From positions 1 to 32,000 of the forward strand of contig PRDJ01000001.1 in NCBI GenBank assembly GCA_003345555.1: a stretch of 32,000 nucleotides of DNA, read 5' to 3'. The position numbers and the translations under genes are program-made. A model generated the notes under the pieces. It saw only the letters and a list, made by a program, of their open reading frames with translations. It did no database searches and had not been told where the DNA came from. This document shows positions 1 through 30,165 of this stretch, in pieces (within the stretch, counting starts at the first letter, position 1; every line of letters starts with the position of its first letter). Origin of the DNA: Candidatus Thorarchaeota archaeon. Its GTDB lineage: Archaea; Asgardarchaeota; Thorarchaeia; Thorarchaeales; Thorarchaeaceae.

Positions 1-510
1 TACTACGTTCAGGTACGGACTATCGACTATGTGACAATCCTGCCTTCAATTCCGGTGGCACTCCTCATCATTGCAGTTCTGTACATCAACGAGTTTCCTG
101 ACTATCGAGCAGATGAGGCTACAGGCAAGAGAACTCTGGTTGTGCGCTTAGGTCGCAAGAATGCGGCTCGAGGATATGCGGTGATCATGACTGCAGTCTA
201 TCTCACAATCTTGTTCGGGGTCATCATGAACGTAATGCCAGACGATACTTTAGTTGCACTGACAACACTACCTCTAGGCAGTCTCGCAGTGCGACGTGCC
301 GTGATTTCATATGAGAAATCGTTTGAACTCATTCCTGCAAACGCCTCGACAGTGTTGACGCATCTGCTGACCGGAATGTTCCTCACACTTGGATACGTGC
401 TAGCAGGACTTGCAGTATCCTTTCTAGAGACTCTGGTGCTCGGCTTCTTTATTCTGGCGGTAACACTGTTCCTGAGCCTTAGGATACACAGGAGACCTCC
501 GCCTGCTTAG
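1..510 (+). CDS. menA: UbiA-family prenyltransferase, MenA-like (1,4-dihydroxy-2-naphthoate polyprenyltransferase); 5'-truncated by the window edge
   Basis: Frame 1 is open from base 1 (YYVQVRTIDY...). It contains the second Asp-rich motif NEFPDYRADEATGKRTLVVRLG (MenA consensus NxxxDxxxDxxxGKxTLxVRLG) and several hydrophobic helices. TAG at 508-510. Confidence 0.8.
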   Translation, partial: YYVQVRTIDYVTILPSIPVALLIIAVLYINEFPDYRADEATGKRTLVVRLGRKNAARGYAVIMTAVYLTILFGVIMNVMPDDTLVALTTLPLGSLAVRRAVISYEKSFELIPANASTVLTHLLTGMFLTLGYVLAGLAVSFLETLVLGFFILAVTLFLSLRIHRRPPPA

Positions 511-1740
511 CTATTGCGGATAGGCTTCCTTGAGGCCATCCCAAGAGAATCCTAAAGCCTCGGCAACTAGTACAGCCAGATCCTTCGACTTCTTGCCTGA
601 CCCGGCTTGGGGAAGTTGGTCCTGCATGAAGTCAACACACGACGGACACGCAGAAATCACCTGCTCGGCACTGGTTTGCTCTATGTCCTTTAGTTTGAGC
701 TGGTTTATCTTCAGGGCGAACTCGTTGTCGATAGCTCGGAGAACGCCGCCCGAGCCGCAGCAGAAGCAGTTGTTCTTGTTATGAGGGAGCTCCTCGAACG
801 ATACTCCCGGCAGATTCTCTATGACTTTCCTCGGTTCCTCAAAGAATCCAGAGTTCCTTCCTGCATCACATCCATCATGGAATGTGATTGAGGTCTCCGT
901 GTGACGACCAAGATTGTTCAGTTTGCCGCTATCAAACAGGTCTGCCAGATATCTTGCGCCGTACTCGATTTCGAACGGATGCTCGATGTTCAGAAGCTCA
1001 TGGTACTCATGTGCCCACATCTTGTAGCAACCAGGACAGTTGGTGACTATTCGTTCCACGCCAAGAGCTTTGTACTTCTCTATGTTGTGAGCCGCGAGTT
1101 TCCGAGCCGTGTCAAAATCCCCCGTCATGAGCATCGGGGCCCCGCAGCACCACTCATCCTCCCCGAGTATGGTATAGTCCTGCTGGACCTTGTCCATAAT
1201 CAGAGTCGTGGCTATTGTAGCTTGGATTGGCACTGCCTTGAACGACGAAGCACATCCGAAGAAGAATGCAGTCTTTGCCTTTCGGCCAATCTTGCTTCGC
1301 ACCAGCTCTTCGTCAGGATGCCAGTACGACCACCCGTCGATTCGATCTGACTGAGATTGACCCTGAATGTTGTTAGTCTTCAACAAAGTGTCCCTTGCAG
1401 CTTCGAGGTTCTTTGGCCACATACCCCTTTTCCTGAACTCGGCACGCATCAGCTTGTAGAGCTTGACAAAAGGGATGTCGACTTGACACACTTCCTCACA
1501 TCCGCCGCACAAAGTGCATCCGAATATGGCGTCTCGGAGACCTTCAAGTCCCTCAGAGGGTTCGATGCGGCCCTGGACTAGTGCCCGGGCAAGAAGCATC
1601 TTTCCCTTGCCAGAGTAGCTATCAAGTCGTTTGACCTTGTATGTGGGGCAGGATCCGTGGCCGACTTGACAGAAACTGCACTGAGCGCAGGTGAAGGGCA
1701 TGTCTTGAAGGCCGTGTTTCTCAAGCAGTGGGAAGCGCAT
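511..1740 (-). CDS. Fe-S oxidoreductase with 2x[4Fe-4S] plus two CCG domains (HdrD/GlcF/GlpC family)
   Basis: N-terminal CAQCSFC-x6-CP and CTLCGGCEEVC motifs. Two complete CCG motifs, C-x34-CC-x35-CPGC and C-x35-CC-x36-CPSC, match the CX31-39CCX35/36CXXC consensus. Its stop abuts the menA stop exactly. Confidence 0.9.
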   Translation of the reverse strand: MRFPLLEKHGLQDMPFTCAQCSFCQVGHGSCPTYKVKRLDSYSGKGKMLLARALVQGRIEPSEGLEGLRDAIFGCTLCGGCEEVCQVDIPFVKLYKLMRAEFRKRGMWPKNLEAARDTLLKTNNIQGQSQSDRIDGWSYWHPDEELVRSKIGRKAKTAFFFGCASSFKAVPIQATIATTLIMDKVQQDYTILGEDEWCCGAPMLMTGDFDTARKLAAHNIEKYKALGVERIVTNCPGCYKMWAHEYHELLNIEHPFEIEYGARYLADLFDSGKLNNLGRHTETSITFHDGCDAGRNSGFFEEPRKVIENLPGVSFEELPHNKNNCFCCGSGGVLRAIDNEFALKINQLKLKDIEQTSAEQVISACPSCVDFMQDQLPQAGSGKKSKDLAVLVAEALGFSWDGLKEAYPQ

Positions 1741-2043: not shown

Positions 2044-4035
2044 GTGATGAGAAAGGACGGAGTTCTCGTACTTCTACTGGTTTTCTCCATACTCATTATG
2101 CTGTTGCCTTCTATGACCGTCGCTCTGCGAAGCCAATCTAAGACCACAGACGGCTTTTCCGCAGAGACTACACCACCGGATACAATCATCTGGGAAACCA
2201 TCGGCAGTCCTGATAACCTAGACCCACATGTTGACTACGAAGCGTTCGGTGCGTGGGTGCTTTTCAACGTCTATGAGACATTGTTCACATATCCTTTCAA
2301 TTCGTCCGACACAACGCCAAGCATCCCGTTGCTGGCAGAAGACTTGGTGATATCAGAGGACGGACTCGGGTACACATTTAGTCTGCGTCAGGGGGTGACG
2401 TTCCATGATGGCACCCCGTTCAATGCTTCGAGTGTGAAGTACAACTTCGAGAGAGTCATGAAAATCTTCGATCCTTACGGACCAGCTTGGATGTTCGCGG
2501 AAGCCATCTCGGGGGGACAGGCAGTTGAGGACGCAGTATACGGCTATGGCAATGGCAGCCCCGAACATGCGGCAGCCTATGACAACTGGAAAGCGAACTC
2601 AGGTGCTATCATAGTCCTCGATACATACACAGTCCAGTTGAAACTTGCTCACAGGTGGGCCCCGTTCATAGCTGCGATAACGTGTGAAGTCGGTGCAATG
2701 ATGAGCCCGACCTGGGTTGAAGCACACGGAGGCGTGCAGTACGGTCAGCACAATACCTATGTCGATGAGCATACCTGTGGAAGCGGGCCTTATGTGGTCA
2801 GCAATTGGACCCGGGACTCAACCATCAAGCTGGACATCAACCCTCTATACTGGAGGACTGCATCGGCAAGAGCAGAGTTTCCCCATGCAGGCGAAGTCAA
2901 CCACGTTTTGATTCTGACCAATGATGACACTGAAGCCCGCATTCTCAATGTGTCTAGCGGCCGAACTGATGCCTGCTATTGGCCCGTTACTCATTCAGTC
3001 GGAGTCTGGAACGGACTCAACGGTTCGAGTGGTGATGGCACACGAAAGTCATCGAACCCCAACCTGAAGTTGTGGTGTCAAGAGCCCACTTACAGTGTGA
3101 GCTTCATAGGATTCAACCTGAACCCGTACGTGTTTTCGTCCGTCGGAACCGTACAGAATCCATTTGTCGTGAAAGCCCTGAGAGAGTCACTCTCCTATGC
3201 CCTCAACTACACATCATTCATCGGTCAGGCCGTGAACGGCTTGGGCATGCCGGGTCAGGGACCAATACCAAAAGGTATGTTCGGACATAACGACAGTCTA
3301 TTCATGTACGAGCAGGACATGGATATGGCCGTACAGAAGTGGAACGCTGCTATGGCCGAAGGCCTTAATGGGATTCTGGCCAACATGTCTTACAGAATCG
3401 ATCTGCGCTACCGGGGCGCAGGCGAAAACGCTGCAAGACCGTGTATGACGATAAAGAATGCCATTGCGGATATTCTCTCCGACGCGGATACCATTCAACC
3501 GTCTCAACCCCTGGTTGTCGAGGTAATTGCAGTCCAAGATATGTACCTGCCATTTGACTGGGAGAAATTGTTCATGCTCTACCCGACAGGGTGGATGCCC
3601 GACTATGCTGATCCGGACGACTACGTACGTCCTTATGTCATGAGTACTGGCTATTACGCGACAAGGATTGGGTTGGCAGTTTCTGAGGGCTGGAATTCGA
3701 CACTAGTGGACGGCTGGATCTCAGCTGCGACAGAGGAATTGAACCCCGCAAGCCGAATAGCTCTGTACGGCCTAGTCCAAGACGCTATCGTGAATCAATG
3801 TGCCTACTTCTGGACATATCAGGCAGAGAACTTCCACGTGGAGTCAACCTCCATGAATGGATACGTGTTCAATCCTATGCACGAGCCGTATTTCTATTAC
3901 TACTGGAAGAGTACAGGGACAGTGACCAACGATGGGTTTTGGAATCCAGTAAGTGCCGGCGTCACAATTGCATCCATCGCTGTCATCATTATCGTTGGCA
4001 CAGCAGTAATCCGTTCGCGCAGACTAGCTGGGTGA
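2044..4035 (+). CDS. ABC transporter peptide/nickel-type solute-binding protein (SBP family 5, DppA/OppA-like) with signal peptide and C-terminal membrane anchor
   Basis: Signature FSLRQGVTFHDGTPFNASSVKYNFER, plus GSGPY and WMPDYADPDDY. Hydrophobic N-terminus; C-terminal TM segment followed by RSRR; 10 N-x-S/T sequons. Start is GTG 2044 or ATG 2047. Confidence 0.88.
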   Translation: MMRKDGVLVLLLVFSILIMLLPSMTVALRSQSKTTDGFSAETTPPDTIIWETIGSPDNLDPHVDYEAFGAWVLFNVYETLFTYPFNSSDTTPSIPLLAEDLVISEDGLGYTFSLRQGVTFHDGTPFNASSVKYNFERVMKIFDPYGPAWMFAEAISGGQAVEDAVYGYGNGSPEHAAAYDNWKANSGAIIVLDTYTVQLKLAHRWAPFIAAITCEVGAMMSPTWVEAHGGVQYGQHNTYVDEHTCGSGPYVVSNWTRDSTIKLDINPLYWRTASARAEFPHAGEVNHVLILTNDDTEARILNVSSGRTDACYWPVTHSVGVWNGLNGSSGDGTRKSSNPNLKLWCQEPTYSVSFIGFNLNPYVFSSVGTVQNPFVVKALRESLSYALNYTSFIGQAVNGLGMPGQGPIPKGMFGHNDSLFMYEQDMDMAVQKWNAAMAEGLNGILANMSYRIDLRYRGAGENAARPCMTIKNAIADILSDADTIQPSQPLVVEVIAVQDMYLPFDWEKLFMLYPTGWMPDYADPDDYVRPYVMSTGYYATRIGLAVSEGWNSTLVDGWISAATEELNPASRIALYGLVQDAIVNQCAYFWTYQAENFHVESTSMNGYVFNPMHEPYFYYYWKSTGTVTNDGFWNPVSAGVTIASIAVIIIVGTAVIRSRRLAG

Positions 4036-4871: not shown

Positions 4872-6827
4872 ATGGAGAAGGTTCTGATGGTGTTAAAGAG
4901 CGAGCAAGTATCGAAACTCGCTGAGGTTTTCGGAGACCGACTCGTCACAGCCAAACATGAGATGATTATTCATTCCCAGGATGTCGGTAGTCTGCCAAAA
5001 CAAGTCGGCTGGCTCATGAACACTAAGCCGGATGCAATCATACAGCCCCAATCTCCGGAGGACATTCAGTTTCTTTATGAGTTTGCTCGGGCTCAGAAGG
5101 TCCCGCTCATCCCCAGGGGTGCTGGAACCTCGGGCTACGGGGGAGCGATACCACGTAACGGCGGCATCGTTGTTGACATGCGCAGGATGGATCGAGTACT
5201 CAATATCGACAAGGAGAACCTTACAGTTACTGTTGAGCCGGGCATATCATGGCTCAATCTGCAGTTCGAACTGAACCGTCAAGGTCTGGATTTGAGATGC
5301 TATCCCTCTTCTGGCATATCGGCCACAGTGGGCGGCTGGGTTGCTCAGGGTGGAGATGGTATCGGATCACTGAAATACGGCAAAATCAATGATAATGTGG
5401 TTGAACTTGAGGTTGTTCTGCCAGAGGGTAGAATTGGCAATACCAAGGACATTGAGCTCTTTTGCGACACAGAAGGTATACTTGGAATCATAACGAAAGT
5501 CACCCTGAAGGTCAGGCAACTCACTCCAATGCGTTCCGTTGTAGTCAGCTTTCCCGAGAATTACTTGATGACATTCGCAATCGAGAAGATTCTGGCTGAG
5601 GGACCATTGCCTTTCACAATAAGATTCGAGGAGAGCAAGTACACGGACCTGAAGAAGAGAGTGTGGGAGTCAGACAAACCTTTCCCATTCCCAGTGAGTC
5701 ACTGTGTTCTCCTTGTTTCTTATGAAGGAACCGAGGACGAGATTCGGGAAGGCTTCGAAGTCGTGAGGCGGGTGGCCGAGGAAATGAAGGGCGCCGTCTA
5801 CGATGATTGGGTTGCAGAGCACGAATGGGAAGACAGGTTCTACCCAATGAAGATCAAGAAGATGGGCCCGAGTCTTGTTGTCGGACAGGCATTCGCCCCA
5901 ATCGAGAGCCTCGAAGGCATTCTGGACGATTTCCAGTTCGAACAGGCCTCAGCGAGAGCTGGCATTGATGGCTATGTGACTTCAAAAACTGGGGTCACGA
6001 TGATGGGTTACTTCCTAGAGGATGAGCGTCGCCACTTCTTCCTGCTCTCTTGGTCCCAAGCCTTCGTAGTATTCAAAATTGCTCAACGTCATGGGGGGCA
6101 CCCTCATTCGACGGGGATTTGGTTTGCCAATTATGCGCCCGCCTATTTCGGCACACGACGCTTGGCTAGAATCCGAGCGGCGAAGGTGGAGTTCGACCCC
6201 GAGGAGATATCTAACCCCGGCAAGATATTCGCGTACTGGCTTCCTTTCATACTCAGGGTTGGCAAGTACTTCATGTGGCTCGGCTTCGATCTTTTTAGAA
6301 ACGGGTTCGGCCGAATTGCGCCTATTATTCTTAGGTGGCTGCAGAATCTCCCGCCCATCAAGTGGATTCTTAGATGGGGCCGGGCATACAGTCCTTGGCC
6401 GGTGCAATATGGCCTCGGTTGCTGTATGGTTGAAGGTGCGGCCGCGGTCGCATCTCGCTGGGATCTTGAGAGATTCGGAATGCTGCCTTTGTTTGGCCCG
6501 CGACAGTGCGATGTGCTCTGGGTCTCTGGTTCACTGACCAAGAAGATGGCACCGCGTCTCCGCCGCATATACGAACAGATGCCTGATCCGAAATTTGTCA
6601 TATCGTTCGGTCAGTGTGCTGCGAGTGGCGGCGTGTTCTGGGATGGATACTCCTTGGTGACGCCGCCTGACAAGGTGATCCCGGTAGATGTCTACTTGCC
6701 GGGCTGTCCTCCCAAGCCGTCGGACTTCGTGAGGGCACACCTGATTCTTGAGAACAAGATTCGAGCGGGAACAACCTATTGGCAACGGAGATACGAGAAT
6801 CAGGATGCCATGGGCTTCGTGAAGTAG
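4872..6827 (+). CDS. nuoB: Fusion protein: VAO/GlcD-family FAD-linked oxidoreductase (aa about 10-452), amphipathic linker, then NuoB/FpoB-type [4Fe-4S] subunit (aa about 505-640)
   Basis: FAD domain motifs: PRGAGTSGYGG, ATVGGWVAQGG..G.GSLKYG, EGILGIITKVTLK, and C-terminal FDPEEISNPGK (6195). NuoB motifs: GLGCCMVE (6417-6431), PRQCDVLWVSGSLTKKMAP.LRRIYEQMPDPKFVISFGQCAASGG, VDVYLPGCPP. One uninterrupted frame. Confidence 0.92.
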   Translation: MEKVLMVLKSEQVSKLAEVFGDRLVTAKHEMIIHSQDVGSLPKQVGWLMNTKPDAIIQPQSPEDIQFLYEFARAQKVPLIPRGAGTSGYGGAIPRNGGIVVDMRRMDRVLNIDKENLTVTVEPGISWLNLQFELNRQGLDLRCYPSSGISATVGGWVAQGGDGIGSLKYGKINDNVVELEVVLPEGRIGNTKDIELFCDTEGILGIITKVTLKVRQLTPMRSVVVSFPENYLMTFAIEKILAEGPLPFTIRFEESKYTDLKKRVWESDKPFPFPVSHCVLLVSYEGTEDEIREGFEVVRRVAEEMKGAVYDDWVAEHEWEDRFYPMKIKKMGPSLVVGQAFAPIESLEGILDDFQFEQASARAGIDGYVTSKTGVTMMGYFLEDERRHFFLLSWSQAFVVFKIAQRHGGHPHSTGIWFANYAPAYFGTRRLARIRAAKVEFDPEEISNPGKIFAYWLPFILRVGKYFMWLGFDLFRNGFGRIAPIILRWLQNLPPIKWILRWGRAYSPWPVQYGLGCCMVEGAAAVASRWDLERFGMLPLFGPRQCDVLWVSGSLTKKMAPRLRRIYEQMPDPKFVISFGQCAASGGVFWDGYSLVTPPDKVIPVDVYLPGCPPKPSDFVRAHLILENKIRAGTTYWQRRYENQDAMGFVK

Positions 6828-6925: not shown

Positions 6926-7393
6926 ATGGGGACCCTCAGGGAAGATAGCGACTTCTATTGTTTGCTTTGGCTTGGAGTAGCCTTGCTGAGCGCATACTAC
7001 TTCAACATCGGATACTTGGGGCTCACAATACCACTGTATCTCAGCACGGTACAGGTTTACTTGCTTCCGTTGGTAGGTTGCCCCTTAATCCTAGTTGTAG
7101 TCTTCGTTTCCTACCTGAGCCCATCCCGAGGCAGGTACAAACCCGTGGCATTCGCTCTGGCGATTGTTGTGTCTCTGTACTTCTACATCGTTGTGAGTTC
7201 ATTACCGCCGGTTGCAGGAATCACTTCCGATACATTGTTTCTATTATCGTGGGGAATTGGCAGCGCTCTTCTTGTGGCATCTGGTTTCTCGATAATGCCG
7301 GGTCGGTCGGAAACAACTAGCCCTGGTATTCTGGATGTTGGATCTCTCAAGTACGGCATTCCGACCGAAGAGGAGCACGAGGAAGCAGCCTAG
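6926..7393 (+). CDS. Hypothetical membrane protein (about 4 TM, 155 aa)
   Basis: Four hydrophobic segments and an acidic tail. ATG 6926 chosen over the longer ORF, which overlaps the preceding gene. Confidence 0.65.
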   Translation: MGTLREDSDFYCLLWLGVALLSAYYFNIGYLGLTIPLYLSTVQVYLLPLVGCPLILVVVFVSYLSPSRGRYKPVAFALAIVVSLYFYIVVSSLPPVAGITSDTLFLLSWGIGSALLVASGFSIMPGRSETTSPGILDVGSLKYGIPTEEEHEEAA

Positions 7394-7812
7394 CCGCGTC
7401 TGATAGTTTCAGCACTTGCTTTCGGAATGGCCAAGTCTCGCTTGGCTCTGGAAAGCTCACGGAGCCAGCTTAATGATGCCACCGTGAGAAGAACACCGAA
7501 TGCGGCCCAAAGAAACAGAATCAGACCGCTGTAAGGTTGTGGGAATAGGACGAGATTCAAGTACCCTTCGATTCCACCAAACACAGCGGACAGGAGAGTC
7601 AATGCTATTCGTGCCATCCTAGTTCTTGAAAATGATATCGCCAATGTTGATGCTACGAAGAGAGCATAGTCAACGAGTACGAGACCATAGAGAAGGTCTA
7701 TGACGCCTGCGTCTGCAACCCACCAAACATACAACGCTATCATTGCAAGGCCGACTGCGAAGACAGTATAGTAGACCAGGATACTCTTCGATTTTGACAC
7801 CAACTCTATCAC
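7390..7812 (-). CDS. Hypothetical membrane protein (about 4 TM, 140 aa)
   Basis: GTG start, four hydrophobic segments, 4-nt convergent overlap with its neighbour. Confidence 0.65.
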   Translation of the reverse strand: MIELVSKSKSILVYYTVFAVGLAMIALYVWWVADAGVIDLLYGLVLVDYALFVASTLAISFSRTRMARIALTLLSAVFGGIEGYLNLVLFPQPYSGLILFLWAAFGVLLTVASLSWLRELSRAKRDLAIPKASAETIRRG

Positions 7813-8604: not shown

Positions 8605-9048
8605 ATGAGGCTCTTCATTGACTTCAATTATGTCTTCGTTTGGGCCCTTCTTGCGGTAGCCCTAGTCGTCATCATGCTTGCGGCATCATGGATACTCCGC
8701 CCTCACATTCTACAGAACTCAGACAAGACTTCCACGTACGAATGCGGCGAAGAGCCGATAGGTCCCGCAAGAGTCTCCTATCCTTACAGCTACTTCCTCT
8801 ACACCATTCTCTTTGTCATCGTTGATGTCATGGGCGCGTTCCTGTGGTTGCTCTCAGTGTCCCAGTTCAGAACTACAGAGGCAGCTGTCTGGCAGATGCT
8901 GTTCTTTGTACTGCTAATCACAGCCGGAATTGGTTTTGCCCTGCGAATGTTCCCGCAGACGATTCTCAGCGGGAAAGAAACCCTCAAGCTCTATAGAGAG
9001 GGAAAGGCGAGACGCGATTCTCAGAAGACGGAGGCGGCCCAGCAATGA
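8605..9048 (+). CDS. nuoA: Complex I-like subunit A (NuoA/FpoA)
   Basis: Three TM segments with the loop motif KTSTYECGEEP and YFLYTILFVIVDV. Confidence 0.9.
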   Translation: MRLFIDFNYVFVWALLAVALVVIMLAASWILRPHILQNSDKTSTYECGEEPIGPARVSYPYSYFLYTILFVIVDVMGAFLWLLSVSQFRTTEAAVWQMLFFVLLITAGIGFALRMFPQTILSGKETLKLYREGKARRDSQKTEAAQQ

Positions 9049-9701
9049 TGATGCAGGGTGCAGAGGTCTTGCTTGAACAGGCAGAGTTCATTGGCGTAGC
9101 TGTCATCGTTCTTGTTCTTGCCTATCTCGCGCTCGAACACAAGGAGATCACCTATGCTGTATTCTTCTTCGGATTCATGGCGGCAGCTGTGGCAGGTTTC
9201 TACCTTCTGCTTGAGGCGCCTTTCTTGGTAGGATTGCAGATAGCTGTCTACACGGGAGGGATAAGTGCCCTGATCATATTCGGTGTCCTCCTCCTTCCTC
9301 GTGCTCAGGACTCCTCGCTGGAAATCTTTCAAACTGCCCGAAGGCGAAGGTTTGGGCTGCTTCTTTCAGGTGCCGTCATGTTACTCTCTGCAATTCTAGC
9401 GTTCTTCTATCCTTGGTCTGACCTACCCCCAGTGAGCCCTCCTGAATTAGCTCAAAGCCTTCAAGGGTTGGCCGCTTGGCTCTGGAGCGGTCATGGGATT
9501 TACGTCGAGATGGTTGCACTGATCATGCTTACTGCCCTTGTCGGGTCCGTTGCCATTCTGAAGATGATGAAGGCGGAAGAACTTCGTCCCTTGACCACAG
9601 AGTCTCATCCAGAGTCTGCGGGAAAGAAGGATGAATCCGGTTCCTCGTCTGCACCCCAAACTGAGACCGGAGAAGGAGCGAAGGAGGCTGGCCCCGAGTG
9701 A
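9045..9701 (+). CDS. nuoJ: Complex I-like subunit J (NuoJ/FpoJ)
   Basis: LQIAVYTGGISALIIFGVLL (NuoJ QxxVYxG motif); five TM segments; ATGA overlap with nuoA. Confidence 0.88.
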   Translation: MMMQGAEVLLEQAEFIGVAVIVLVLAYLALEHKEITYAVFFFGFMAAAVAGFYLLLEAPFLVGLQIAVYTGGISALIIFGVLLLPRAQDSSLEIFQTARRRRFGLLLSGAVMLLSAILAFFYPWSDLPPVSPPELAQSLQGLAAWLWSGHGIYVEMVALIMLTALVGSVAILKMMKAEELRPLTTESHPESAGKKDESGSSSAPQTETGEGAKEAGPE

Positions 9702-10018
9702 TTCCCTTGAGCTGGTACCTAATCGTGGCATTCATGCTCATTGGTCTTGGAGCCTATGGAATGATAACCAAGAGGAACTTGATTCGAATAATCATAGGCG
9801 CTGAGATAATGGCCAATGGAGTTAACATAGCGTTGGTTGCGTTTTCAGTTTACACCGAAGTCTTCACCTTCACTGGCCAATCTCTTGTCATCATCGTAAT
9901 AGCAGTGACAGCTGCTCATACGGCACTGGCAATGGCGCTCATGCTGATGTACAACGCGCGATATTCCACGGTGGACCTTGGAGAGCCGGTTGTTTCGGAG
10001 GGACGAAGGCATGAGTGA
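9698..10018 (+). CDS. nuoK: Complex I-like subunit K (NuoK/FpoK)
   Basis: GMITKRNLIRIIIGAEIMANGVNIALVAFS; three TM segments; GTGA overlap; GGAGG RBS upstream. Confidence 0.9.
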   Translation: MIPLSWYLIVAFMLIGLGAYGMITKRNLIRIIIGAEIMANGVNIALVAFSVYTEVFTFTGQSLVIIVIAVTAAHTALAMALMLMYNARYSTVDLGEPVVSEGRRHE

Positions 10019-10544
10019 GCCAGATATCTATCTCACAACGGTGTCACCCTCGGCGGTTGCTCAGGCAGTGAGAAGCAAATGTCCAGATGTCACGCAGAAG
10101 AGTATGCAGGGGAACCGTCTAGAGCTGATTGTTCCGCCCTCAAGAATCCGGGATGTCGTGGGCCTGCTTAACGAACTGATTTCTGACGCTCTTCCAGAGT
10201 CCGTCTTTGGCATCGACCTTCAGAATGACCGATACGAACTGATCTATGTGTTTTGGTCCCACCTCAACAGAATGCTGTGCCAGCTTCGTGTGAGTCTGGA
10301 AGGTACCGTACCCGAGGTCGACTCTGTCTGTGACATATTCCCGGGATTGGAGTGGCACGAACGCGAGACCCATGAGATGTTCGGCATAGGTTTCAAGGGC
10401 CATCCCGACCTGAGATTGCTTTTGCTCCCGGAGGAGCTGAGCGGCAAGTACCCGCTTCGAAAGAGATTCAAAACTGACAGAAGCCGATTGAGCGAAACTG
10501 GATTGCCCGAAGCTAGGCCAGGTTCAAAGGAGGCCGAAACGTAG
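10011..10544 (+). CDS. nuoC: Complex I-like subunit C (NuoC/FpoC)
   Basis: WHERETHEMFGIGFKGHPDLRLLLLPEE...YPLRK motif. ATG 10011 overlaps the nuoK stop by 8 nt. Confidence 0.92.
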   Translation: MSEPDIYLTTVSPSAVAQAVRSKCPDVTQKSMQGNRLELIVPPSRIRDVVGLLNELISDALPESVFGIDLQNDRYELIYVFWSHLNRMLCQLRVSLEGTVPEVDSVCDIFPGLEWHERETHEMFGIGFKGHPDLRLLLLPEELSGKYPLRKRFKTDRSRLSETGLPEARPGSKEAET

Positions 10545-11680
10545 TGTGCCCTGAGATTGTTGATGAGGCAGCTCAGGTCTGGTTCGGACCCCAGCACGTA
10601 TCGGCTCATGGGTGGGCTACGAAGCTCACAATCGTCGGGGACTACATTGTTGAATGCGATCCGAATGCAGGTTACTTTCACCGCTCGGCGGAGAAGTGCC
10701 TTGAGTTCAGGAACTTCCAGCAGGGCGCACTGATTATGGAACGGCTCTGTATGCTTGAGGCTTTCCTTGCAGAGTATCCTTACGTCAAGGCAGTTGAACA
10801 AATCGCCCAGCTTGATGTGCCAGAGCGAGCAAGGGTGATGAGAACTATAATGATGGAGGCGAGCAGGATTCACAGCCTCCAATTCTGGTGGGGTCAATTC
10901 GGGGCCGAGCTGGGCCTCTTTGCAATGACGCTCTGGCCTTGGGTCGATCGTGAGTATTTCCTCGATGCATTTGAAGAGCTGACCGGTTCTCGACATGCAG
11001 TCTCCTACAGCGCACCTGGTGGCGTCAAGTACGACTTCAACGAGAAGTCTATCAAGATGCTGGAGCGGGCTCTGGATAGGCTTGAGGATCGGCTTCCAAA
11101 GTTTCGTGACATGATTCTGAGAAGCCCCACTTTCAAGTTGCGAACCAAGAAGATTGGACTGTTTGACGCAGCACAGGGTTTGAAGTGGGGGTTGAGTGGG
11201 CCGAACATAAAGGCGTGTGGCATCCCGATGGATTTGCGAAAGGACGACCCCGACCCGAATCTCGCGTACGAGATGTGTGACTGGGAAGTGCCAGTGACGA
11301 CCAATGAGGATCATCCGGGTCAATGCGATGCCTATGACAGGATGTCGCAACGGTTCAAGGAAATCGAGACCTCAGCCAGTATCATCCGTCAACTGCTGCC
11401 TCAAGTGCCTGAAGGTCCTATCATAGACCCCAAAGCCCGCGCGAAGGCAAACAGGCTGCCCGAGGGAGAGGCATACGGTCGTGTCGAGGGCACAAGGGGA
11501 GTAACAACGCTCTTTCTCAAGACTGCTGACAAGGCTCAGACTCCTTACAGAGCAAAGATACGCGGCCCATGTTTCGCCTCGTACTACTCGTTGAAGCATT
11601 TGGTTCCTGGATCGACATTCGCTGACTTCGTCGTAATATTCGGCAGCCTCGACCCATACCCGGGGTGGTGGGATCGCTGA
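10544..11680 (+). CDS. nuoD: Complex I-like subunit D (NuoD/FpoD/MbsL family; not a [NiFe] hydrogenase large subunit)
   Basis: FGPQHVSAHG, GYFHRSAEK, RVEGTRG and YRAKIRGPCF motifs, ending GSLDPYPGWWDR. Both NiFe CxxC motifs are absent. Confidence 0.9.
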   Translation: MCPEIVDEAAQVWFGPQHVSAHGWATKLTIVGDYIVECDPNAGYFHRSAEKCLEFRNFQQGALIMERLCMLEAFLAEYPYVKAVEQIAQLDVPERARVMRTIMMEASRIHSLQFWWGQFGAELGLFAMTLWPWVDREYFLDAFEELTGSRHAVSYSAPGGVKYDFNEKSIKMLERALDRLEDRLPKFRDMILRSPTFKLRTKKIGLFDAAQGLKWGLSGPNIKACGIPMDLRKDDPDPNLAYEMCDWEVPVTTNEDHPGQCDAYDRMSQRFKEIETSASIIRQLLPQVPEGPIIDPKARAKANRLPEGEAYGRVEGTRGVTTLFLKTADKAQTPYRAKIRGPCFASYYSLKHLVPGSTFADFVVIFGSLDPYPGWWDR

Positions 11681-12822
11681 TGGGGGTCGGCACGATTCTT
11701 CAGATAGACATCGTGGGCTGGCTGAGCGGACTGCCCTCCTGGATTTACCTCGTAATCAGCGGGCTGTTCAGCCTTGTCTGGGCCTTCTTCAACTGGATAT
11801 GGAGCATTGTCGTCTGGTTCTGGGCACTGGCTATTTCCCAAATATGGTGGCTGTTCAAGGCCATAGTATTCCCGGGGTTAGTCTTCATACTGTTCTCCAT
11901 CATCTTCTCCGTGTGGTTCACGAGAAAGGTATGGGGCCGAGTGCAAGCAAGACGGGGTCCGTTTCACCTCGGTAAGTACGGGGGCCTCCAGGTATTCGCA
12001 GACGCGATAAAGCTAATTGGAAAAGAAATCGTGATACCTGACAAAGCCAAGCGATGGATGTACAGAATACTTCCATCTCTGCTACTTATCGCAGTTCTCG
12101 TTCCATTTGCGTTTATTCCATGGAGCAACGAATGGTATATCGCGGATCTCTCAGTGAGCCTAATAGTAACGTTTGCATTTCTTACAGTTGTTCCTGTGGT
12201 ATCTCTGCTTTCGGGCTGGATTAGCGGATCGAAGTACACACTCATTGGTGGCTTCAGGGCAGCTAACAATCAATTCGCTGCCGAGATACCCTTGATCATT
12301 TCCTCTGTTGGTCCTGCGATGCTTGCCGGCTCGCTAAGCATCATGGGCATTTCACAAGCTCAGTCAAGTCTTTGGTACTTTCTTCTGCTTCCTGTAAACT
12401 GCGTGACATTCATGGTGAGTGCTACCGTGATAACTGCGCTCGTGCCTTTCGATGCCCCGGTCGCAGACTCGGAGATTCTGTTTGGCTGGAGGACCGAGTT
12501 CAGCGGCATATACTTCACCATGACCTATTTTGCAGAGTTCGCTAAGCAGTTGCTGTTCTCCGGTCTCATAGTAGCTCTGTTCTTCGGAGGTTCATACGGC
12601 TTTGCATTCATGCCTCCTGTCCTGAACTTCATCTTCAAGTTCCTAATCGTTCTCTTCTTCATGATCTTGGTGACATCATCATTCTACAGGATGAGACAGG
12701 ATCAGGTCACTCACTTCTGCTGGAAGTATCTTCTGCCGTTGTCTCTGCTCAACGTTGTCATTGCGATGTTTGCGATTGTGTATGTCCCGGGATTGGCACA
12801 GCTGCTGGGAATCGGAGGTTGA
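11680..12822 (+). CDS. nuoH: Complex I-like subunit H (NuoH/FpoH) with a Trp-rich N-terminal extension
   Basis: RVQARRGP...GGLQVFADAIKLIGKE, SKYTLIGGFR and PFD....SEI..G..TEFSG motifs; TGATG overlap with nuoD. Confidence 0.9.
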   Translation: MGVGTILQIDIVGWLSGLPSWIYLVISGLFSLVWAFFNWIWSIVVWFWALAISQIWWLFKAIVFPGLVFILFSIIFSVWFTRKVWGRVQARRGPFHLGKYGGLQVFADAIKLIGKEIVIPDKAKRWMYRILPSLLLIAVLVPFAFIPWSNEWYIADLSVSLIVTFAFLTVVPVVSLLSGWISGSKYTLIGGFRAANNQFAAEIPLIISSVGPAMLAGSLSIMGISQAQSSLWYFLLLPVNCVTFMVSATVITALVPFDAPVADSEILFGWRTEFSGIYFTMTYFAEFAKQLLFSGLIVALFFGGSYGFAFMPPVLNFIFKFLIVLFFMILVTSSFYRMRQDQVTHFCWKYLLPLSLLNVVIAMFAIVYVPGLAQLLGIGG

Positions 12823-12829
12823 TGAAAGG

Positions 12830-13261
12830 ATGGGTTTCTTTAGCACGCTCGGTGACATATTCAGGGTACTGCGTCATACATTCCGTCAGACGATGACTCG
12901 ACCTTTCACCTACTTCTATCCATTTGAAGACCGGTACTATCCAGACACCACGAGGGGCAGACATATTCACATCAGGAAGAACTGCACGGCGTGCGCACAG
13001 TGTGTGAAAGCTTGTCCTACGATCGCGATAAGAATCGACAAGCAGGACCGCATGTACGAGAAGGATGCCGCCCTGCACTTTGATTATACACGCTGCATAT
13101 TCTGCGGTCTCTGTGTTCAGGCATGCAAGTTCAATGCACTCTTCCACACCAAAATTGTTGATCTCAGTGAAGAAACGAGAGAAGACCTGCAATACGGTCC
13201 TGACAGAATGGGCACACTCGAAAGGAAACCCCTCAAGTGGCGCGGGAGGACATTCAGGTAA
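12830..13261 (+). CDS. nuoI: Complex I-like subunit I (NuoI/FpoI), 2x[4Fe-4S]
   Basis: CTACAQCVKACP and CIFCGLCVQAC motifs; TRGRH and FDYTRC; GGAGGT RBS. Confidence 0.93.
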   Translation: MGFFSTLGDIFRVLRHTFRQTMTRPFTYFYPFEDRYYPDTTRGRHIHIRKNCTACAQCVKACPTIAIRIDKQDRMYEKDAALHFDYTRCIFCGLCVQACKFNALFHTKIVDLSEETREDLQYGPDRMGTLERKPLKWRGRTFR

Positions 13262-14775
13262 TGCAGGTCGTACAACTCCCATTCATGACGATTTCGCTTG
13301 CCATGTTGTTCTTTGGTGCGTTGGCTATCTATTTGCTGAAGAGCAGGCTGGGTGCGGGGGCAGGTAAAGCAGCAGCGGCTATATCATTCGCTTCCCTTGT
13401 GTTGATGATTCCGCCATTCTTCCGAGTTGTGGTGGAAGGCGGGCCTGCGATGGAGTCCGCAACTTGGTCCCAAGTGTTCGGCAGAGTCGGTCTCTACCTT
13501 GATGGCATCGCGTTTCCGATTACATTCGCAGTTGTGGTTCTTGGATTCCTGTCGGTGGTCTATGCCATCGGGTACACTCGAGAGATTCCGAACCAGCCAT
13601 CATTCTTTGCGAACCAGCTATTTTTCATCATGGGGATGCAATGGGTGACATTGGCCACGAATGTCATAGAGTTCTTCATAGCATGGGAGATCATGCTTGT
13701 CCCCACGTACTTCCTGATCCTGTTCTGGGGATTGCCCGAGACCAAGAAGCGCACTGCATTGAAGTTCTGGTTATACACACAGTCCGGCGCATTATGTATC
13801 TTCGTGGGATTCGGTCTACTGTACTATTTCGTAGGCTCATTCGAGCTCTCGGTCATCCAATCACTCCTGCCCACGTACGTGGGCTCGATTGACACTCTGA
13901 AGCTCATCTTTGTCTTGCTCGCCGCAGGGTTCCTCGTCAAGATGGCTGTCTTTCCTATTCACTGGTGGCTGCCCCCAGTCCATGCTGAGGCCCCAACACC
14001 AATCTCCGTTCTACTCTCAGGCGCAATGATTGAGACCGGTGCTTATGCCTTGGTCAGGTTTGGAACAATCATACTAGGAATTGCCGCTTCATCTCTTTCT
14101 GTATGGATTGCTGCAATTGGAGTAGTCACTATGTTCTACGGAGGCCTGATGGCACTGGCCCAGTCAGATATCAAGAGGTTACTTGCGTACTCATCTGTCT
14201 CCCAAATGGGCTATGTTCTCTTTGCGCTTGGCACATTCGCAACTTATGGTGTGTCGGGTGGCCTGTTTCATCTTATCAATCATGCATTCTCAAAGGGCCT
14301 CCTATTCATGACAGCAGGGGTCGTCATTCACGAGACGAAGGTGAGAGACATTGCTCAGCTGGGCGGGTTGTCGAACAAGATGCCAATCACAGCATTCGCC
14401 GCTGCTGTGGGGGCGCTGAGCATCGCAGGGAGTCCTCCGTTGTCGGGCTTCGCCAGCGAATGGATGATGTTCCTCGGAGGATTCCAAGCGGCACTGCCCG
14501 GTGCAGGTGGTTTGGCCCGACCCGAGTTCTTTGTTCTAGCCGTGCTTGGAGTATCAAGCACAATCATCAGCGCTGGGTATATGCTGAGATATCTGTGGAA
14601 AGTCTTCTTGGGACCGACACCGGAGAGCCTTGAGCACGTGAGAGAAGGACCTAGGTCAATGACCGTCCCCATGGTGACTCTGTCGTGCCTTATAGTCCTG
14701 TTCGGAATATTCCCGGGGCTTGCGCTTTCTGTGATAAGCCCGGCGGTGAACGCTATAGCTAACATAATTCCTTGA
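13261..14775 (+). CDS. Additional (fourth) proton-translocating antiporter-like subunit, HyfB/MrpD/NuoM-like
   Basis: AWEIMLVP, VKMAVFPIHWWLPPVHAEAPTPIS, DIKRLLAYSSVSQMGY, HLINHAFSKGLLF and PPLSGFASEW motifs. About 504 aa. TAATG coupling to nuoI. Confidence 0.9.
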   Translation: MQVVQLPFMTISLAMLFFGALAIYLLKSRLGAGAGKAAAAISFASLVLMIPPFFRVVVEGGPAMESATWSQVFGRVGLYLDGIAFPITFAVVVLGFLSVVYAIGYTREIPNQPSFFANQLFFIMGMQWVTLATNVIEFFIAWEIMLVPTYFLILFWGLPETKKRTALKFWLYTQSGALCIFVGFGLLYYFVGSFELSVIQSLLPTYVGSIDTLKLIFVLLAAGFLVKMAVFPIHWWLPPVHAEAPTPISVLLSGAMIETGAYALVRFGTIILGIAASSLSVWIAAIGVVTMFYGGLMALAQSDIKRLLAYSSVSQMGYVLFALGTFATYGVSGGLFHLINHAFSKGLLFMTAGVVIHETKVRDIAQLGGLSNKMPITAFAAAVGALSIAGSPPLSGFASEWMMFLGGFQAALPGAGGLARPEFFVLAVLGVSSTIISAGYMLRYLWKVFLGPTPESLEHVREGPRSMTVPMVTLSCLIVLFGIFPGLALSVISPAVNAIANIIP

Positions 14776-14785
14776 GGTGCGCCAG

Positions 14786-17002
14786 ATGCTGTTCGGACTA
14801 CCCTACTATCTGATTCTCGTCATTCCGCTGGCAGGTTCACTGGTTGTTCCTCTCGCTGGCCGCTTCAGTGAAAAGCTGAGAGACTGGACGCCCGCTTTAC
14901 TCATGGGCATTACGATGATTTTGTGCTGGTCTCTCTTCCCAGACATCGGTAGTCCTCAGGGGCCCACGAGTTGGCCTTGGATTGAGGCGTTGGGCCTTCG
15001 TTTCGAAGTCCTGCTGGATCCTCTGTCCGTCATCATGGCAGTTCTTTCGAGTACGCTATGCTTCCTGATCTACGTTTACAGCACGGAATACATGGCTCAC
15101 GAAGGAGATCGTGACAGGTTCTTCTTCCTAATGCTTGCTTTCGGGGGCGGCATGCTGACCCTTGTGCTCAGCAACAACCTTCTGATTGCATTCATCGGGT
15201 GGGAGATAATGGGCTTCTGTTCCTATGGTCTCATCGGTTTCTGGAACGATAGGAAGAACCCACCCGAGACCGACCCGACTGGTATTGAATCAAAGAATCC
15301 ACTGCTCCGCTTCGAAACAGAAGGTCAGTACAACACTCACTGCGGAACAAAGGCATTCGTCGTAACGAGAGTCGGGGACGCCTTCATGCTCGGAGGAATT
15401 CTCCTTCTGTTCATGTTCACCGGCACCTTCTCATTTACAGAGATGGCTGCCGATGCTCAAAGCTGGTGGCAGATTCTCTCTTCTGTTGGACTGCTATTCC
15501 CGACCTTTCTTCTCATATTCGCAGGTGCCATTGGAAAGTCAGGACAAGCTCCTCTCGACGTCTGGCTTCCCGAAGCAATGGCCGGACCAACGTCGGTCTC
15601 AGCACTGATTCACGCAGCAACCATGGTCAAGGCTGGGATATACATCACGGCTCGTTTTCTGGTCACCATGGCAAGCGCTGCAGACTCCGGAGTCGTTCCC
15701 GAGATTCTGCCTCCGTCTTTCGACTCCGCTGCGTCGTTCTTTACAGTTGTTGCCATAGTCGGGGGCGTTACAGCATTCATGACGGCTACCATGGGAATGG
15801 TTTCCAATGAGCTGAAGCAGGTTCTGGCGTTCTCGACTTTGAGTCAGCTCGGATACATGATGCTAGCGATGGGCACAGGGGGGCTACTCATCAGCTATCA
15901 GGAAGCATACATGAGCGGGATTCTGCACATCATAAGTCACGGAGCTTTCAAGGCTCTTCTCTTTCTTGCGGCGGGCGGAGTCATTCACGTTGTTCACACG
16001 AAGTACCTCAGCAAGATGGGCGGCCTCAAGCAGTACATGCCCAAAACATTCATTGTAATGTGGATTGGTGTGCTTGCTCTTTCAGGCATTCCGCCGTTCT
16101 CAGGTTTCTGGTCGAAGGATTCGATAATCGAGTACGCATATGACCTCGCGCTCCACAATGATGTTGGTATCTTCCTCTTCATTCTGGCTATTCTTGCAGC
16201 AGCTTGTACAATCTTCTACAGCATAAGGCTCATGGGGATGGCTTTCTATGGGCCTTCACGCGGCGTCGCATCAACCGAGGATATGAGTGCCTCACTAGGT
16301 CACGAGTCTCACGGGCACTCGGAGCAAGAACCGCATACCGAGCATGAGGAGCCGCATGACCCCGGCCGGGCAATGATGTGCCCTCTATACATTCTCGCTG
16401 CTTTCACAATCGTAGCCTTTGCTGTCTTTCCGTTTGTTGAGGCCGTGCTGTTCAGCGAAGGTCCTATGACAGTATCAGTGTGGACAAGCGTTCTCACAGA
16501 GATGGTGCTTGTGAAACTGACAATGCCGGGATTGGTGCCTTTCGTGTTCACATTGGGGGCATTGGCCTTGGGAGGAATTCCGGCCTATATTCTTTACATT
16601 GGACGGTCGGACCGGCCGAATACGGCGATACCCGATGCCGGGATCAGGAAGCGGCTATACGGTTTTCTCAAGCATCGTTGGTACATCAATGAATTCTACT
16701 ATTGGATTGTCGGTGGCGTTCTCAGATTCACGAGTTCTTGGAAGTCGAAGATAGATGACCGTATCATAGACGGCATTGATTTCGGCTCGGCTCGTACGGC
16801 AATCTCGGCGTCCAAGCGAATAAGATGGTTTGACGATCACATAGTTGATGGATTTGCAGAGGAGATATCGACGGCAAGCGTCGCTGCGTCAGAGTCGAGC
16901 GAGGTAATCGAGACCGGAAGAGTCAACGACTATGTGGCTGTTCTCATGTTCGGTGTCGGAGTTCTGGTTATTCTTGCTTTGATTTCCTTGGGGGTGATCT
17001 AG
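14786..17002 (+). CDS. nuoL: Complex I-like subunit L (NuoL/FpoL) with an extended transverse helix
   Basis: GWEIMGFCSYGLIGFW, KAFVVTRVGD, GKSGQAPLDVWLPEAMAGPTSVSALIHAATMV, FSTLSQLGY, HGAFKALLF and GFWSKD motifs; His-rich loop; C-terminal HL helix plus TM16. ATG 14786 follows a GAGGTG RBS (GTG 14777 is an alternative). Confidence 0.95.
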   Translation: MLFGLPYYLILVIPLAGSLVVPLAGRFSEKLRDWTPALLMGITMILCWSLFPDIGSPQGPTSWPWIEALGLRFEVLLDPLSVIMAVLSSTLCFLIYVYSTEYMAHEGDRDRFFFLMLAFGGGMLTLVLSNNLLIAFIGWEIMGFCSYGLIGFWNDRKNPPETDPTGIESKNPLLRFETEGQYNTHCGTKAFVVTRVGDAFMLGGILLLFMFTGTFSFTEMAADAQSWWQILSSVGLLFPTFLLIFAGAIGKSGQAPLDVWLPEAMAGPTSVSALIHAATMVKAGIYITARFLVTMASAADSGVVPEILPPSFDSAASFFTVVAIVGGVTAFMTATMGMVSNELKQVLAFSTLSQLGYMMLAMGTGGLLISYQEAYMSGILHIISHGAFKALLFLAAGGVIHVVHTKYLSKMGGLKQYMPKTFIVMWIGVLALSGIPPFSGFWSKDSIIEYAYDLALHNDVGIFLFILAILAAACTIFYSIRLMGMAFYGPSRGVASTEDMSASLGHESHGHSEQEPHTEHEEPHDPGRAMMCPLYILAAFTIVAFAVFPFVEAVLFSEGPMTVSVWTSVLTEMVLVKLTMPGLVPFVFTLGALALGGIPAYILYIGRSDRPNTAIPDAGIRKRLYGFLKHRWYINEFYYWIVGGVLRFTSSWKSKIDDRIIDGIDFGSARTAISASKRIRWFDDHIVDGFAEEISTASVAASESSEVIETGRVNDYVAVLMFGVGVLVILALISLGVI
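16751..16906 (+). repeat. Degenerate 26-codon tandem duplication inside the NuoL amphipathic helix
   Basis: IDDRIIDG at 16751 and FDDHIVDG at 16829 are exactly 78 nt apart; the two units share 7/26 identities plus I/V and I/F conservative pairs. Confidence 0.75.
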
Positions 17003-26279: not shown

Positions 26280-26393
26280 GTCTGACGCCCTTCCTAGACT
26301 GGACTGACATGCAGAAAAGGCTTGACTAGCCTGCACTTTGTTCGATATTTCATACCGAAACTGATATTCACGGATGGGGCAGAGAGAAGGCAC

Positions 26394-26735
26394 ATGGCTG
26401 ACTCGGCGAAAGGAGATCAAAGCGGGCTCGGTGGAGCAGGCAAATACCTGGCCGTAGCCTCAGAACTTCCGTGTACTGTAGTGGCAATGCTTTTCGCCGG
26501 GCAGATTGTTGGTTCCTCAATGTGGGGTCTACAGGGTGGTACTTGGGGTGCCATCATAGGAACGGTCGCAGGATTCATTCTGGGCGCCTATGGTGTGTAC
26601 GTCACGCTGGGATACTTTGAGAGAATGGAACGTGACGCGCGAGTGAAACAGAAGTACATGCCAACTCCTGAGGAGATTGCCGAGGACGTTCTCTTCTCTC
26701 TCGATGATGAAGACCCCGGCGGCTCTACTTCGTAA
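26394..26735 (+). CDS. AtpZ/AtpI-like two-TM protein (F-type ATP synthase accessory family)
   Basis: YLAVASEL...VAMLFAGQIVG...GAIIGTVAGFILGAYGVYVTL resembles the AtpZ/I pattern (EL......G...G..LD......W....G...G...G...VY). Confidence 0.55.
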   Translation: MADSAKGDQSGLGGAGKYLAVASELPCTVVAMLFAGQIVGSSMWGLQGGTWGAIIGTVAGFILGAYGVYVTLGYFERMERDARVKQKYMPTPEEIAEDVLFSLDDEDPGGSTS

Positions 26736-28525: not shown

Positions 28526-28541
28526 CGGAGGACAATATCCA

Positions 28542-28940: not shown

Positions 28941-29091
28941 CTGAAGGATCAAGAGATTGTGCCACGAGAGCAGCATTAGGCCTTGCTTCAGTCCTGCGGT
29001 TAGAATCCAGGAGTCGCACGGCTCGAAGAGAGAGCTTGTGAGTGGGATTGCGATAGATGAGCAGTCTTCTGGGGGCTGCAGTTTCTCCTCC

Positions 29092-29721: not shown

Positions 29722-29722
29722 C

Positions 29723-30049: not shown

Positions 30050-30129
30050 GGTAAACCTCTCCGGGCGTGGCGAGTTGAAGCTCCCGCGGCTAATCTCCTG
30101 ATAAAGATTGACCCTGCCGAATAGCCCGC

Positions 30130-30165
30130 CCGAGTCTCGGACTCACTCAGACACTACGTTTAAAT
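30130..30165. promoter_or_regulatory. Candidate bidirectional promoter between atpH and atpI
   Basis: Self-complementary TTTAAA box at 30159-30164. Overlapping dyads CCGAG-T-CTCGG (30130-30140) and GAGTC-TCG-GACTC (30132-30144). Confidence 0.35.

Follow-up and report, generated by a model that had tools for sequence, protein, structure and literature searches.

A gene for a flavoprotein fused in frame to NuoB, the N2 cluster subunit of complex I, lies in the first 32,000 nucleotides (nt) of contig PRDJ01000001.1 from the Candidatus Thorarchaeota archaeon assembly GCA_003345555.1 (referred to here as the window). The fusion supplies the only NuoB for a nuo operon that starts 1.8 kb downstream, and what is new here is a complex I relative with a covalently attached flavoprotein module. 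In our preferred reading, to which we assign a probability of about one half, the flavoprotein and a co-inherited HdrD/GlcF-like iron-sulfur protein form a redox module that is tethered to the Q-module (NuoB/C/D/I) and probably exchanges electrons with the NuoI/N2 chain.

A flavoprotein and NuoB in one frame

The fusion gene (4872..6827, + strand) is a single open frame of 651 amino acids (aa) with zero internal stops. Its likely start is the second ATG, at nt 4887, which gives a protein of 646 aa; the homologues are likewise 646 aa long and start there. Pfam places FAD_binding_4 (PF01565; FAD, flavin adenine dinucleotide) at aa 53-188 (E value, 2.6e-41), the FAD-oxidase_C cap (PF02913) at aa 221-452 (E value, 2e-9), and Oxidored_q6 (PF01058), the NuoB domain, at aa 518-622 (E value, 4e-25; 88.4 bits versus a cutoff of 27). 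On the DNA, the VAO/PCMH-type flavoprotein part with both of its domains, as delimited by Pfam, Foldseek, and motif comparison, covers 5028..6227 (+). It is followed by an amphipathic tail or linker that is basic and rich in Trp and Arg (aa 452-505; 6225..6386, +), defined by its composition, its sequence identities, and helices predicted with AlphaFold 2 (AF2), and then by the NuoB (PSST/Nqo6) core with four N2 cysteines (6387..6788, +), for which PF01058, TIGR01957, and NF005012 all score above cutoff. The AF2 model of the fusion has a predicted local distance difference test (pLDDT) score of 86.9 and a predicted template modeling (pTM) score of 0.75.

An earlier note on this DNA, made from the letters alone, had proposed the in-frame fusion, and it proves to be real and conserved, with one frame that recurs in about 50 genomes. 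The tandem CC that was read at nt 6420-6425 is present, as are GQCAASGG (aa 580-587) and PGCPP (aa 610-614), and the NuoB is complete. The DPEEISNPGK string that had been taken to close the flavoprotein fold is present as well, at nt 6195-6224, although position 6195 is its first base and not its end. Mean pairwise identity among 25 fusions is 74% in the FAD part, 80% in the tail, which is thus better conserved than the flavoprotein domains, and 89% in NuoB, indicating that every part of the fusion is under purifying selection. The labels "NuoB" or "hypothetical" that databases attach to these 646-aa proteins hide the fused flavoprotein.

The NuoB half passes the curated NCBIfam cutoffs, scoring 180.9 against NF005012 (cutoff, 116) and 173.6 against TIGR01957 (cutoff, 142.7), with coverage of profile positions 8-144 of 145. 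The N2 cysteines C517, C518, C582, and C612 are invariant in the 25 fusions and line up with the cysteines of the CC, GxC, and GCPP motifs in free NuoBs. Among Protein Data Bank (PDB) structures, the top matches are NdhK (6hum_K) and Nqo6 (2fug_6), with an E value of 1e-42 and query residues 497-639 corresponding to Nqo6 25-166. The matches to 6u8y_J (3e-31) and to MbhJ (7e-28) are far weaker than those to the NuoB of complex I/NDH-1 (1e-42). The fused NuoB would assemble into the membrane complex and bind a [4Fe-4S] cluster.

The source genome (2.28 Mb, 93% complete) has three further PF01058 genes, each adjoining a gene for a [NiFe] hydrogenase large subunit together with MvhD or an NAD/FAD-binding subunit, and these neighbors mark all three as small subunits of cytosolic group-3 [NiFe] hydrogenases. 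As the nuo operon has no nuoB and the other PF01058 genes encode hydrogenase subunits, the fusion is the only NuoB available to the operon, which bears out the suggestion first made from the window.

Distribution and uniqueness of the fusion

To delimit where the fusion occurs, 400 Asgard genomes were scanned. The full-length fusion is found in about 50 species-level genomes, all of which belong to genera g1 to g12 of a single Thorarchaeia family, and no full-length fusion is found in four other genera of that family or in any of the 32 other families scanned. The full-length homologues form about 46 protein clusters and share 72-88% identity. In the genera without the fusion, just distant NuoB-like (38-45% identity) and NuoD-like (29-33%) genes are present, so this type of Nuo and the fusion go together. 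Recurrence at 72-88% identity in about 50 genomes means that a chimera can be excluded without recourse to read coverage. In one genome of the same genus, G333, the gene is carried in two frames (locus L032, G333:C5, 5239-7190), because one nucleotide is missing (GGAGTTCGAC to GGAG-TCGAC) ten codons short of where the FAD domain ends. Either a sequencing error or a recent event that inactivated or split the gene accounts for this isolated case.

An architecture search had been advised as a check. In an exhaustive phmmer search of 1.84 billion representative proteins, the combination of FAD domain and NuoB is confined, among the best 150 matches, to one representative spanning both domains, which is this very cluster; a distant VAO domain together with a normal NuoB in one protein should score within that range. 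No AlphaFold DB cluster matches both domains. Of the other proteins matched in two stretches, those that were examined include no FAD-NuoB fusion. P0446 (533 aa) has two NuoB domains in tandem, P0378 and P0401 have a double FAD_binding_4, and P0367 (867 aa), a related flavoprotein with 40% identity, has an N-terminal NrfD-type membrane domain; in others, the FAD domain is combined with glutamate synthase or GCV_H modules. P0367 and P0446 are themselves uncommon architectures.

Family and active site of the flavoprotein half

The flavoprotein half has the fold of mouse LDHD, with Foldseek template modeling (TM) scores of 0.84 to 0.86 (normalized to target length), and also matches AGPS and LctD. 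Its FAD-binding motifs, RGxGxSGYGGA and QGGDGIGSLKYG, are intact and invariant in the fusions. The label "VAO/GlcD family" in the earlier note holds at the level of the superfamily but not for GlcD proper, as the score against the GlcD equivalog TIGR00387 is far below cutoff (140.6 bits versus 567.9; for PRK11230, 104.8 versus 897) and Pro stands in place of the Glu in EHGxG. In phmmer alignments, P411-H412 fall under the Glu-His of EHGxG (9qgz) and H412 falls under the LctD His, such that only the His of the pair remains.

Throughout the clade, the position of EHG[IV]G is occupied by GG[HR].[HY]S.G.W, one of two clade-specific motifs, the other being EW..RFYPMR.K..GP. The HxGDGNxH motif, which we take to be a metal site with two His, is not visible in aa 360-395 of any clade member in a comparison limited to sequence motifs. 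Many members of the surrounding clade carry Fer4 plus CCG where NuoB sits here, and one has an N-terminal NrfD domain. Because the motif state is common to the whole clade, down to the enzymes that stand alone or are fused to Fer4+CCG, it characterizes the family and is no sign of decay. Judged from its sequences, the clade is a distinct modular family of flavoprotein dehydrogenases and no decayed GlcD.

Since the catalytic Glu of GlcD/Dld is absent, a substrate is not assignable. Lactate was considered on account of a LarA-like gene in the window (24993-26420, -), which scores below all equivalog cutoffs and lies 18 kb away, making it unusable for this purpose. The gene itself encodes a homologue of nickel-pincer 2-hydroxyacid racemases, with malate and lactate racemase as its best models, and stands beside an FGGY sugar/glycerol kinase gene (23414-24934).

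The tail and the origin of the two halves

In the tail that connects the domains (aa 452-505), there are five Trp, six Arg, two Lys, one Asp, and no Glu. AF2 predicts three helices within it (457-477, 479-491, and 494-505), and its hydrophobicity is too low for a transmembrane segment; it probably rests on the membrane surface. The C-terminal tail of an unfused flavoprotein, P0051, up to ...PPLKWI, is 47% identical to fusion aa 440-499, and an unfused NuoB, P0125, matches fusion aa 486-540 with its residues 29-83 at 67% identity. Together, these two matches place the junction of the ancestral proteins near aa 499-501, and on this mapping the first ~28 residues of NuoB itself have been replaced in the fusion. 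Thus, the Trp/Arg-rich amphipathic linker of about 50 aa described earlier is indeed there, but it is no neutral spacer, being the flavoprotein's own tail merged with the start of NuoB.

The NuoB half is nearest to free NuoBs of other Asgard lineages (180-194 aa, 63-68% identity), one of which is encoded after nuoA (genome G003). The free NuoB P0125 (L005, 10001-10561), 67% identical to the fused NuoB, is encoded outside any nuo operon, beside hypE, hypC, hypF, and hypD, on a metagenome contig of ~100 kb. The flavoprotein half is most similar (56-58% identity) to a protein from genus g14 that is 498 aa long and unfused, and whose gene is directly downstream of an HdrD/GlcF-like gene and co-directional with it. 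In a maximum-likelihood tree, the fusions and the g14 proteins form one clade (100/100 support), the internal order of which collapses into a polytomy. The data are compatible both with one fusion event and with truncation at a later stage in g14, and neither is rejected. In G003, a FAD_binding_4 gene situated ~5 kb away from the unfused nuoA-nuoB pair was considered as a precursor and set aside as an unrelated paralog, its product being only 25% identical.

A co-inherited HdrD-like protein as predicted partner

Upstream of the fusion, the window encodes an HdrD/GlcF-like iron-sulfur protein of 409 aa (511..1740, -; Pfam Fer4_8 plus two CCG), with a 2x[4Fe-4S] ferredoxin domain at its N terminus and a complete pair of CCG domains. 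Its cluster cysteines are invariant in 52 HdrD-like homologues (C18/21/24/31 and C75/78/81/85, followed by C163/198/199/235/238 and C291/327/328/365/368). The protein is 67-68% identical to the product of the gene that adjoins the fusion or the unfused flavoprotein in other Thorarchaeia. The HdrD-like gene is divergently upstream of the fusion in three compared loci (L021 to L023) and in 8 of 11 further genomes, and a close ortholog is found solely in genomes that have an ortholog of the flavoprotein. In the window, an inserted gene for a family-5 solute-binding protein (2044-4035) separates the HdrD-like gene from the fusion; in most relatives, these two are directly adjacent and divergent.

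A complex of fusion aa 1-505 with the HdrD-like protein was predicted with an interaction prediction score from aligned errors (ipSAE) of 0.86, while the best of three controls reached 0.00. The prediction runs have at least 93% of their contacts in common, and the pLDDT of the partner is at least 90. For calibration, the ipSAE mark is reached by 58 of 80 solved complexes and by 2 of 110 mismatched pairs, counts that hold roughly here since custom alignments were used, and a pass can reflect likeness to solved assemblies. On the flavoprotein side, the predicted interface comprises the FAD loop RGAGTS at aa 84-86, the stretch aa 147-150, and, at aa 323-335, the clade-specific motif RFYPMKIKKMGPS; on the partner side, it comprises aa 13-88, the ferredoxin-like domain with its cluster cysteines. 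The interface motif is conserved, and the tail lies outside the interface. The ferredoxin domain of the HdrD-like protein is therefore predicted, with high confidence, to dock on the flavin face and to be the redox partner of the FAD domain.

The nuo operon and its neighborhood

The operon (8605-20019, +) comprises nuoA, J, K, C, D, H, and I plus four antiporter-like genes, the extra one standing ahead of L, M, and N. By Pfam, the genes are nuoA (8605-9048), nuoJ (9045-9701), nuoK (9698-10018), nuoC (9978-10544), nuoD (10544-11680), nuoH (11665-12822), and nuoI (12755-13261; its true start is probably later). These are followed, on the same strand, by the extra M/N-like antiporter gene (13237-14775; Proton_antipo_M), nuoL (14777-17002; Proton_antipo_M and Proton_antipo_N), a nuoM-like gene (17003-18520; Proton_antipo_M), and a nuoN-like gene (18520-20019; Proton_antipo_M). 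The same nuo order and the same number of antiporter-like subunits, four and not three, are seen in L021, L022, and L023. No NuoE, NuoF, or NuoG is encoded in the operon here or in those of L021 to L023, to which the search was limited. In its wider extent, the order of HdrD-like gene, fusion, memA, memB, nuoAJKCDHI, and four antiporter genes is kept in L021 to L023 and in 11 further genomes.

The NuoD of the operon has no NiFe cysteine motifs. It retains His38, whereas the quinone Tyr87 is replaced by Met (Thermus numbering); the sequence there, ER[LI]CM[LV]E, is the same in orthologs. The C terminus of NuoD is DPYPGWWDR. The top PDB match is 6u8y_L (197 bits, versus 178 for Nqo4), from what we take to be the P. 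furiosus MBS sulfur reductase, and NuoD and 6u8y_L have R-x-C-x-x-E in common at the position of the quinone-Tyr motif. No MqnA/D, MqnC, or MenD scores above cutoff in the 93%-complete genome, although other carriers are conceivable. That no quinone pathway was found and that Tyr87 is changed to Met make the chemistry beside N2 uncertain.

Two genes for small membrane proteins separate the fusion from nuoA. The first, memA (6926..7393, +; ~155 aa from MGTLREDSD, with an acidic C terminus), is always directly 3' of the fusion and is present in 11 of 11 further loci; it has orthologs of 40-43% identity at the same position, but no Pfam or NCBIfam match. The second, memB (7390..7812, -; ~117-140 aa), lies between memA and nuoA; its orthologs at the same position are 34% identical and are present in most loci with enough flank, and it has no family match. 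Both are multi-pass membrane proteins and may be extra subunits or assembly factors.

Genes for an A/V-type ATP synthase begin a few kilobases past the nuo operon (27461-32000), with subunit C/AC39 at 27461-28525 and subunit I from 30108. In several genomes, genes for a UbiA-type prenyltransferase, a polyprenyl synthase, and a geranylgeranyl reductase flank the HdrD-like gene (window 1-510; upstream in L008 and L022). A role of these flanking prenyl genes in making a membrane redox carrier is possible. As a carrier biosynthesis cluster, however, the UbiA and polyprenyl synthase genes were rejected, since ordinary lipid synthesis suffices to account for the genome's single polyprenyl synthase and three UbiA genes.

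A proposed tethered redox module and its alternatives

The sole NuoB of a Nuo/Fpo-like membrane complex with four antiporter-like subunits and no NuoEFG is joined, at its N terminus, to a Dld-like VAO-family flavoprotein. We propose that the flavoprotein would retain its ancestral HdrD/GlcF-like partner, whose ferredoxin domain would sit on the flavin face, and the conserved basic amphipathic tail would hold this module permanently on the Q-module. There, the module would most likely fill the place held by NuoEFG or FpoF elsewhere. Electrons would pass between a soluble substrate at the flavin and the NuoI/N2 clusters via the [4Fe-4S] clusters of the HdrD-like protein, with a disulfide or another substrate possibly at the CCG site. 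The direction could be either way, in that the substrate would drive the pump or the ion gradient would drive electrons of a donor at about -190 mV uphill to ferredoxin. The fusion itself, with its conservation, its uniqueness, and its place as sole NuoB, has been established, as have the synteny and co-inheritance of the HdrD-like gene; the interface between flavoprotein and HdrD-like protein is a model prediction, and the docking on NuoI, the exchange with N2, the direction of flow, and the substrates are inferred. With the HdrD-like protein predicted on the flavin face, a path from FAD through its [4Fe-4S] clusters to NuoI is likelier than one from FAD to N2; of the two options that the earlier note had offered, a direct entry at N2 and docking onto NuoI, this is nearer to the latter. 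The repeated fusion of relatives to electron transfer modules (Fer4+CCG and NrfD) also favors a redox module.

Several observations weigh against this proposal. The placement of the module on NuoI, or near any Nuo cluster, is conjectural. The tail, which is Trp rich and has a net charge of about +7, resembles an in-plane membrane anchor and could keep the module at the membrane, at a distance from the uppermost part of NuoI. Genus g14 has the unfused form in genomes without this Nuo (the NuoD-like proteins being 29-33% identical), which indicates that the flavoprotein/HdrD-like pair can function alone. The energetics are awkward, as a donor at the 2-hydroxyacid level cannot drive four pumps into a low-potential acceptor. 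With no quinone pathway found and the NuoD Tyr changed to Met, the chemistry of the N2 site itself is uncertain. Finally, the complex prediction may in part echo related flavoprotein/Fe-S assemblies.

The main rival is a mere co-localization of an autonomous dehydrogenase with the pump, whereby the flavoprotein and the HdrD-like protein are a self-contained monotopic membrane dehydrogenase pair that is not wired into the Nuo clusters. In variants of this explanation, the fusion anchors the pair beside the complex, or fixes stoichiometry and co-regulation, or the CCG site and the NuoD/H pocket share a lipophilic or sulfur carrier. Taken jointly, these are a serious possibility at well short of even odds. 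The basic, Trp-rich amphipathic tail is present in the unfused homologue too and falls outside the predicted interface with the HdrD-like protein, genus g14 has the unfused pair without this Nuo, and CCG proteins such as GlcF, GlpC, and HdrD (NCBIfam matches) usually terminate electron chains of their own. Yet an in-frame fusion to the N2 subunit, retained in about 50 genomes, is a strong constraint if proximity is all that it serves, the genome has no free NuoB besides, and, for a shared carrier, no known quinone pathway was found.

More tentatively, and in our view rather improbably, the complex could be a quinone-independent complex I relative, in which the fused module would connect ferredoxin, at NuoI, directly and with ion coupling to a soluble redox couple, either organic or of the thiol/disulfide type. 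Running forwards, it would be a ferredoxin-oxidizing pump without a membrane carrier; running backwards, the gradient would lift electrons from about -190 mV to ferredoxin for acetogenesis. If this were true, the four antiporter-like subunits would match the gap of ~300 mV, and the input/output module as well as the coupling chemistry at the N2 site would be of a new kind.

A direct route, with the flavin at the membrane base of the arm exchanging electrons with N2 and bypassing NuoI, is unlikely. The fusion point suits it, being the N terminus of NuoB, with Nqo6 residue 25 aligned to aa 497 and presumably near the membrane interface in the Thermus structure; the pTM of 0.75 for the two-domain AF2 model likewise hints at a preferred arrangement of the domains. 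In solved structures of complex I, however, N2 is buried at the NuoB/NuoD/NuoH interface, which makes a tunneling distance to the isoalloxazine of a 50-kDa flavoprotein improbable, and the ferredoxin domain of the HdrD-like protein is predicted to take up the flavin face. The helical tail of about 50 residues between the domains is a further point against such a route.

We judge it more doubtful still that the flavoprotein domain is a silent accessory, recruited in a catalytically inactive form for assembly or stability only, in the manner of the enzyme-derived supernumerary subunits of mitochondrial complex I. The loss of the EHGxG Glu, the HxGDGNxH motif that is not visible, and the substrate that is not assignable would all agree with this. 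The same motif state nevertheless runs across the wider clade, free-standing and Fer4+CCG-fused enzymes included, and the domain has intact and invariant FAD-binding motifs, a conserved interface motif, and 74% identity across genera. Lastly, an assembly or annotation artifact, in which a sequencing error joined two genes, is effectively refuted, for the frame is uninterrupted in about 50 assemblies obtained independently from many samples, some of them closed or nearly closed, and the two-frame gene of G333 is the exception, its second half having no start codon.

Relation to known systems

The C-terminal 150 aa resemble NuoB/Nqo6/PSST/NdhK in scoring above the curated cutoffs, in the N2 cysteines, and in having nuoA/J/K/C/D/H/I/L/M/N as neighbors. 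Unlike those proteins, the fusion bears an N-terminal flavoprotein of ~500 aa. NuoB fusions described earlier are to NuoC or NuoCD and are at the C terminus of NuoB (PMC11237513, PMC12361115). In the literature, we found no flavoprotein-NuoB fusion, only NuoBC/BCD fusions and the collocation of Dld and HdrD genes, which is frequent in Asgard archaea (PMC9723677).

Like FpoF/FqoF and NuoEFG, the Thorarchaeial module is a flavin/Fe-S module on an 11-subunit core that has no other input module, and its proposed point of entry is the NuoI clusters, NuoI/NdhI being also where ferredoxin docks in 11-subunit complexes. The fold and the cofactor logic are unrelated, as those modules are FrhB-like or NuoF-like, whereas this one combines a VAO-type FAD domain with HdrD-like CCG. 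FpoF and NuoEFG attach noncovalently atop NuoI/NuoG, whereas the module described here is attached covalently via NuoB, its role in input being conjectural. From 14-subunit complex I, the system differs in having an operon without NuoE/F/G and a NuoD in which Tyr87 is changed to Met and His38 is kept.

GlcDEF, Dld-II, the YdiJ-like FAD-Fer4-CCG fusions, and the Asgard Dld-HdrD pairs share with it the LDHD-type fold and a co-inherited HdrD-like partner, and the closest relatives outside the Thorarchaeia have Fer4+CCG at the exact position of NuoB. This clade differs from the Dld/GlcD systems in lacking the EHGxG Glu, in having motifs of its own, in failing the GlcD equivalog, and in having NuoB as its C-terminal partner. 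With MBS/MBH (P. furiosus; 6u8y, 6cfw), the common features are on the side of NuoD, which matches 6u8y_L best and has R-x-C-x-x-E at the quinone-Tyr position. In contrast, the NuoB part is closer to complex I/NDH-1, and the operon is Nuo-like in its gene order and in its four antiporter-like subunits.

How the NuoEFG-less complex I relatives of anaerobic archaea, especially those of Asgard archaea, take up or deliver electrons is the open question that the fusion addresses. Asgard Nuo complexes without NuoEFG are thought to receive electrons from ferredoxin at NuoI (10.1101/2024.07.04.601786; PMC9723677). Next to NuoEFG and FpoF, the fusion is a definite candidate, open to testing, for a third kind of input module; the organisms that carry it have an altered NuoD pocket and no detectable quinone pathway. 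In practical terms, the flavin chromophore on NuoB would be a handle for purification, and the fusion is a clean marker for one Thorarchaeial clade. More broadly, how these complexes are wired bears on metabolic models of the archaeal ancestor of eukaryotes.

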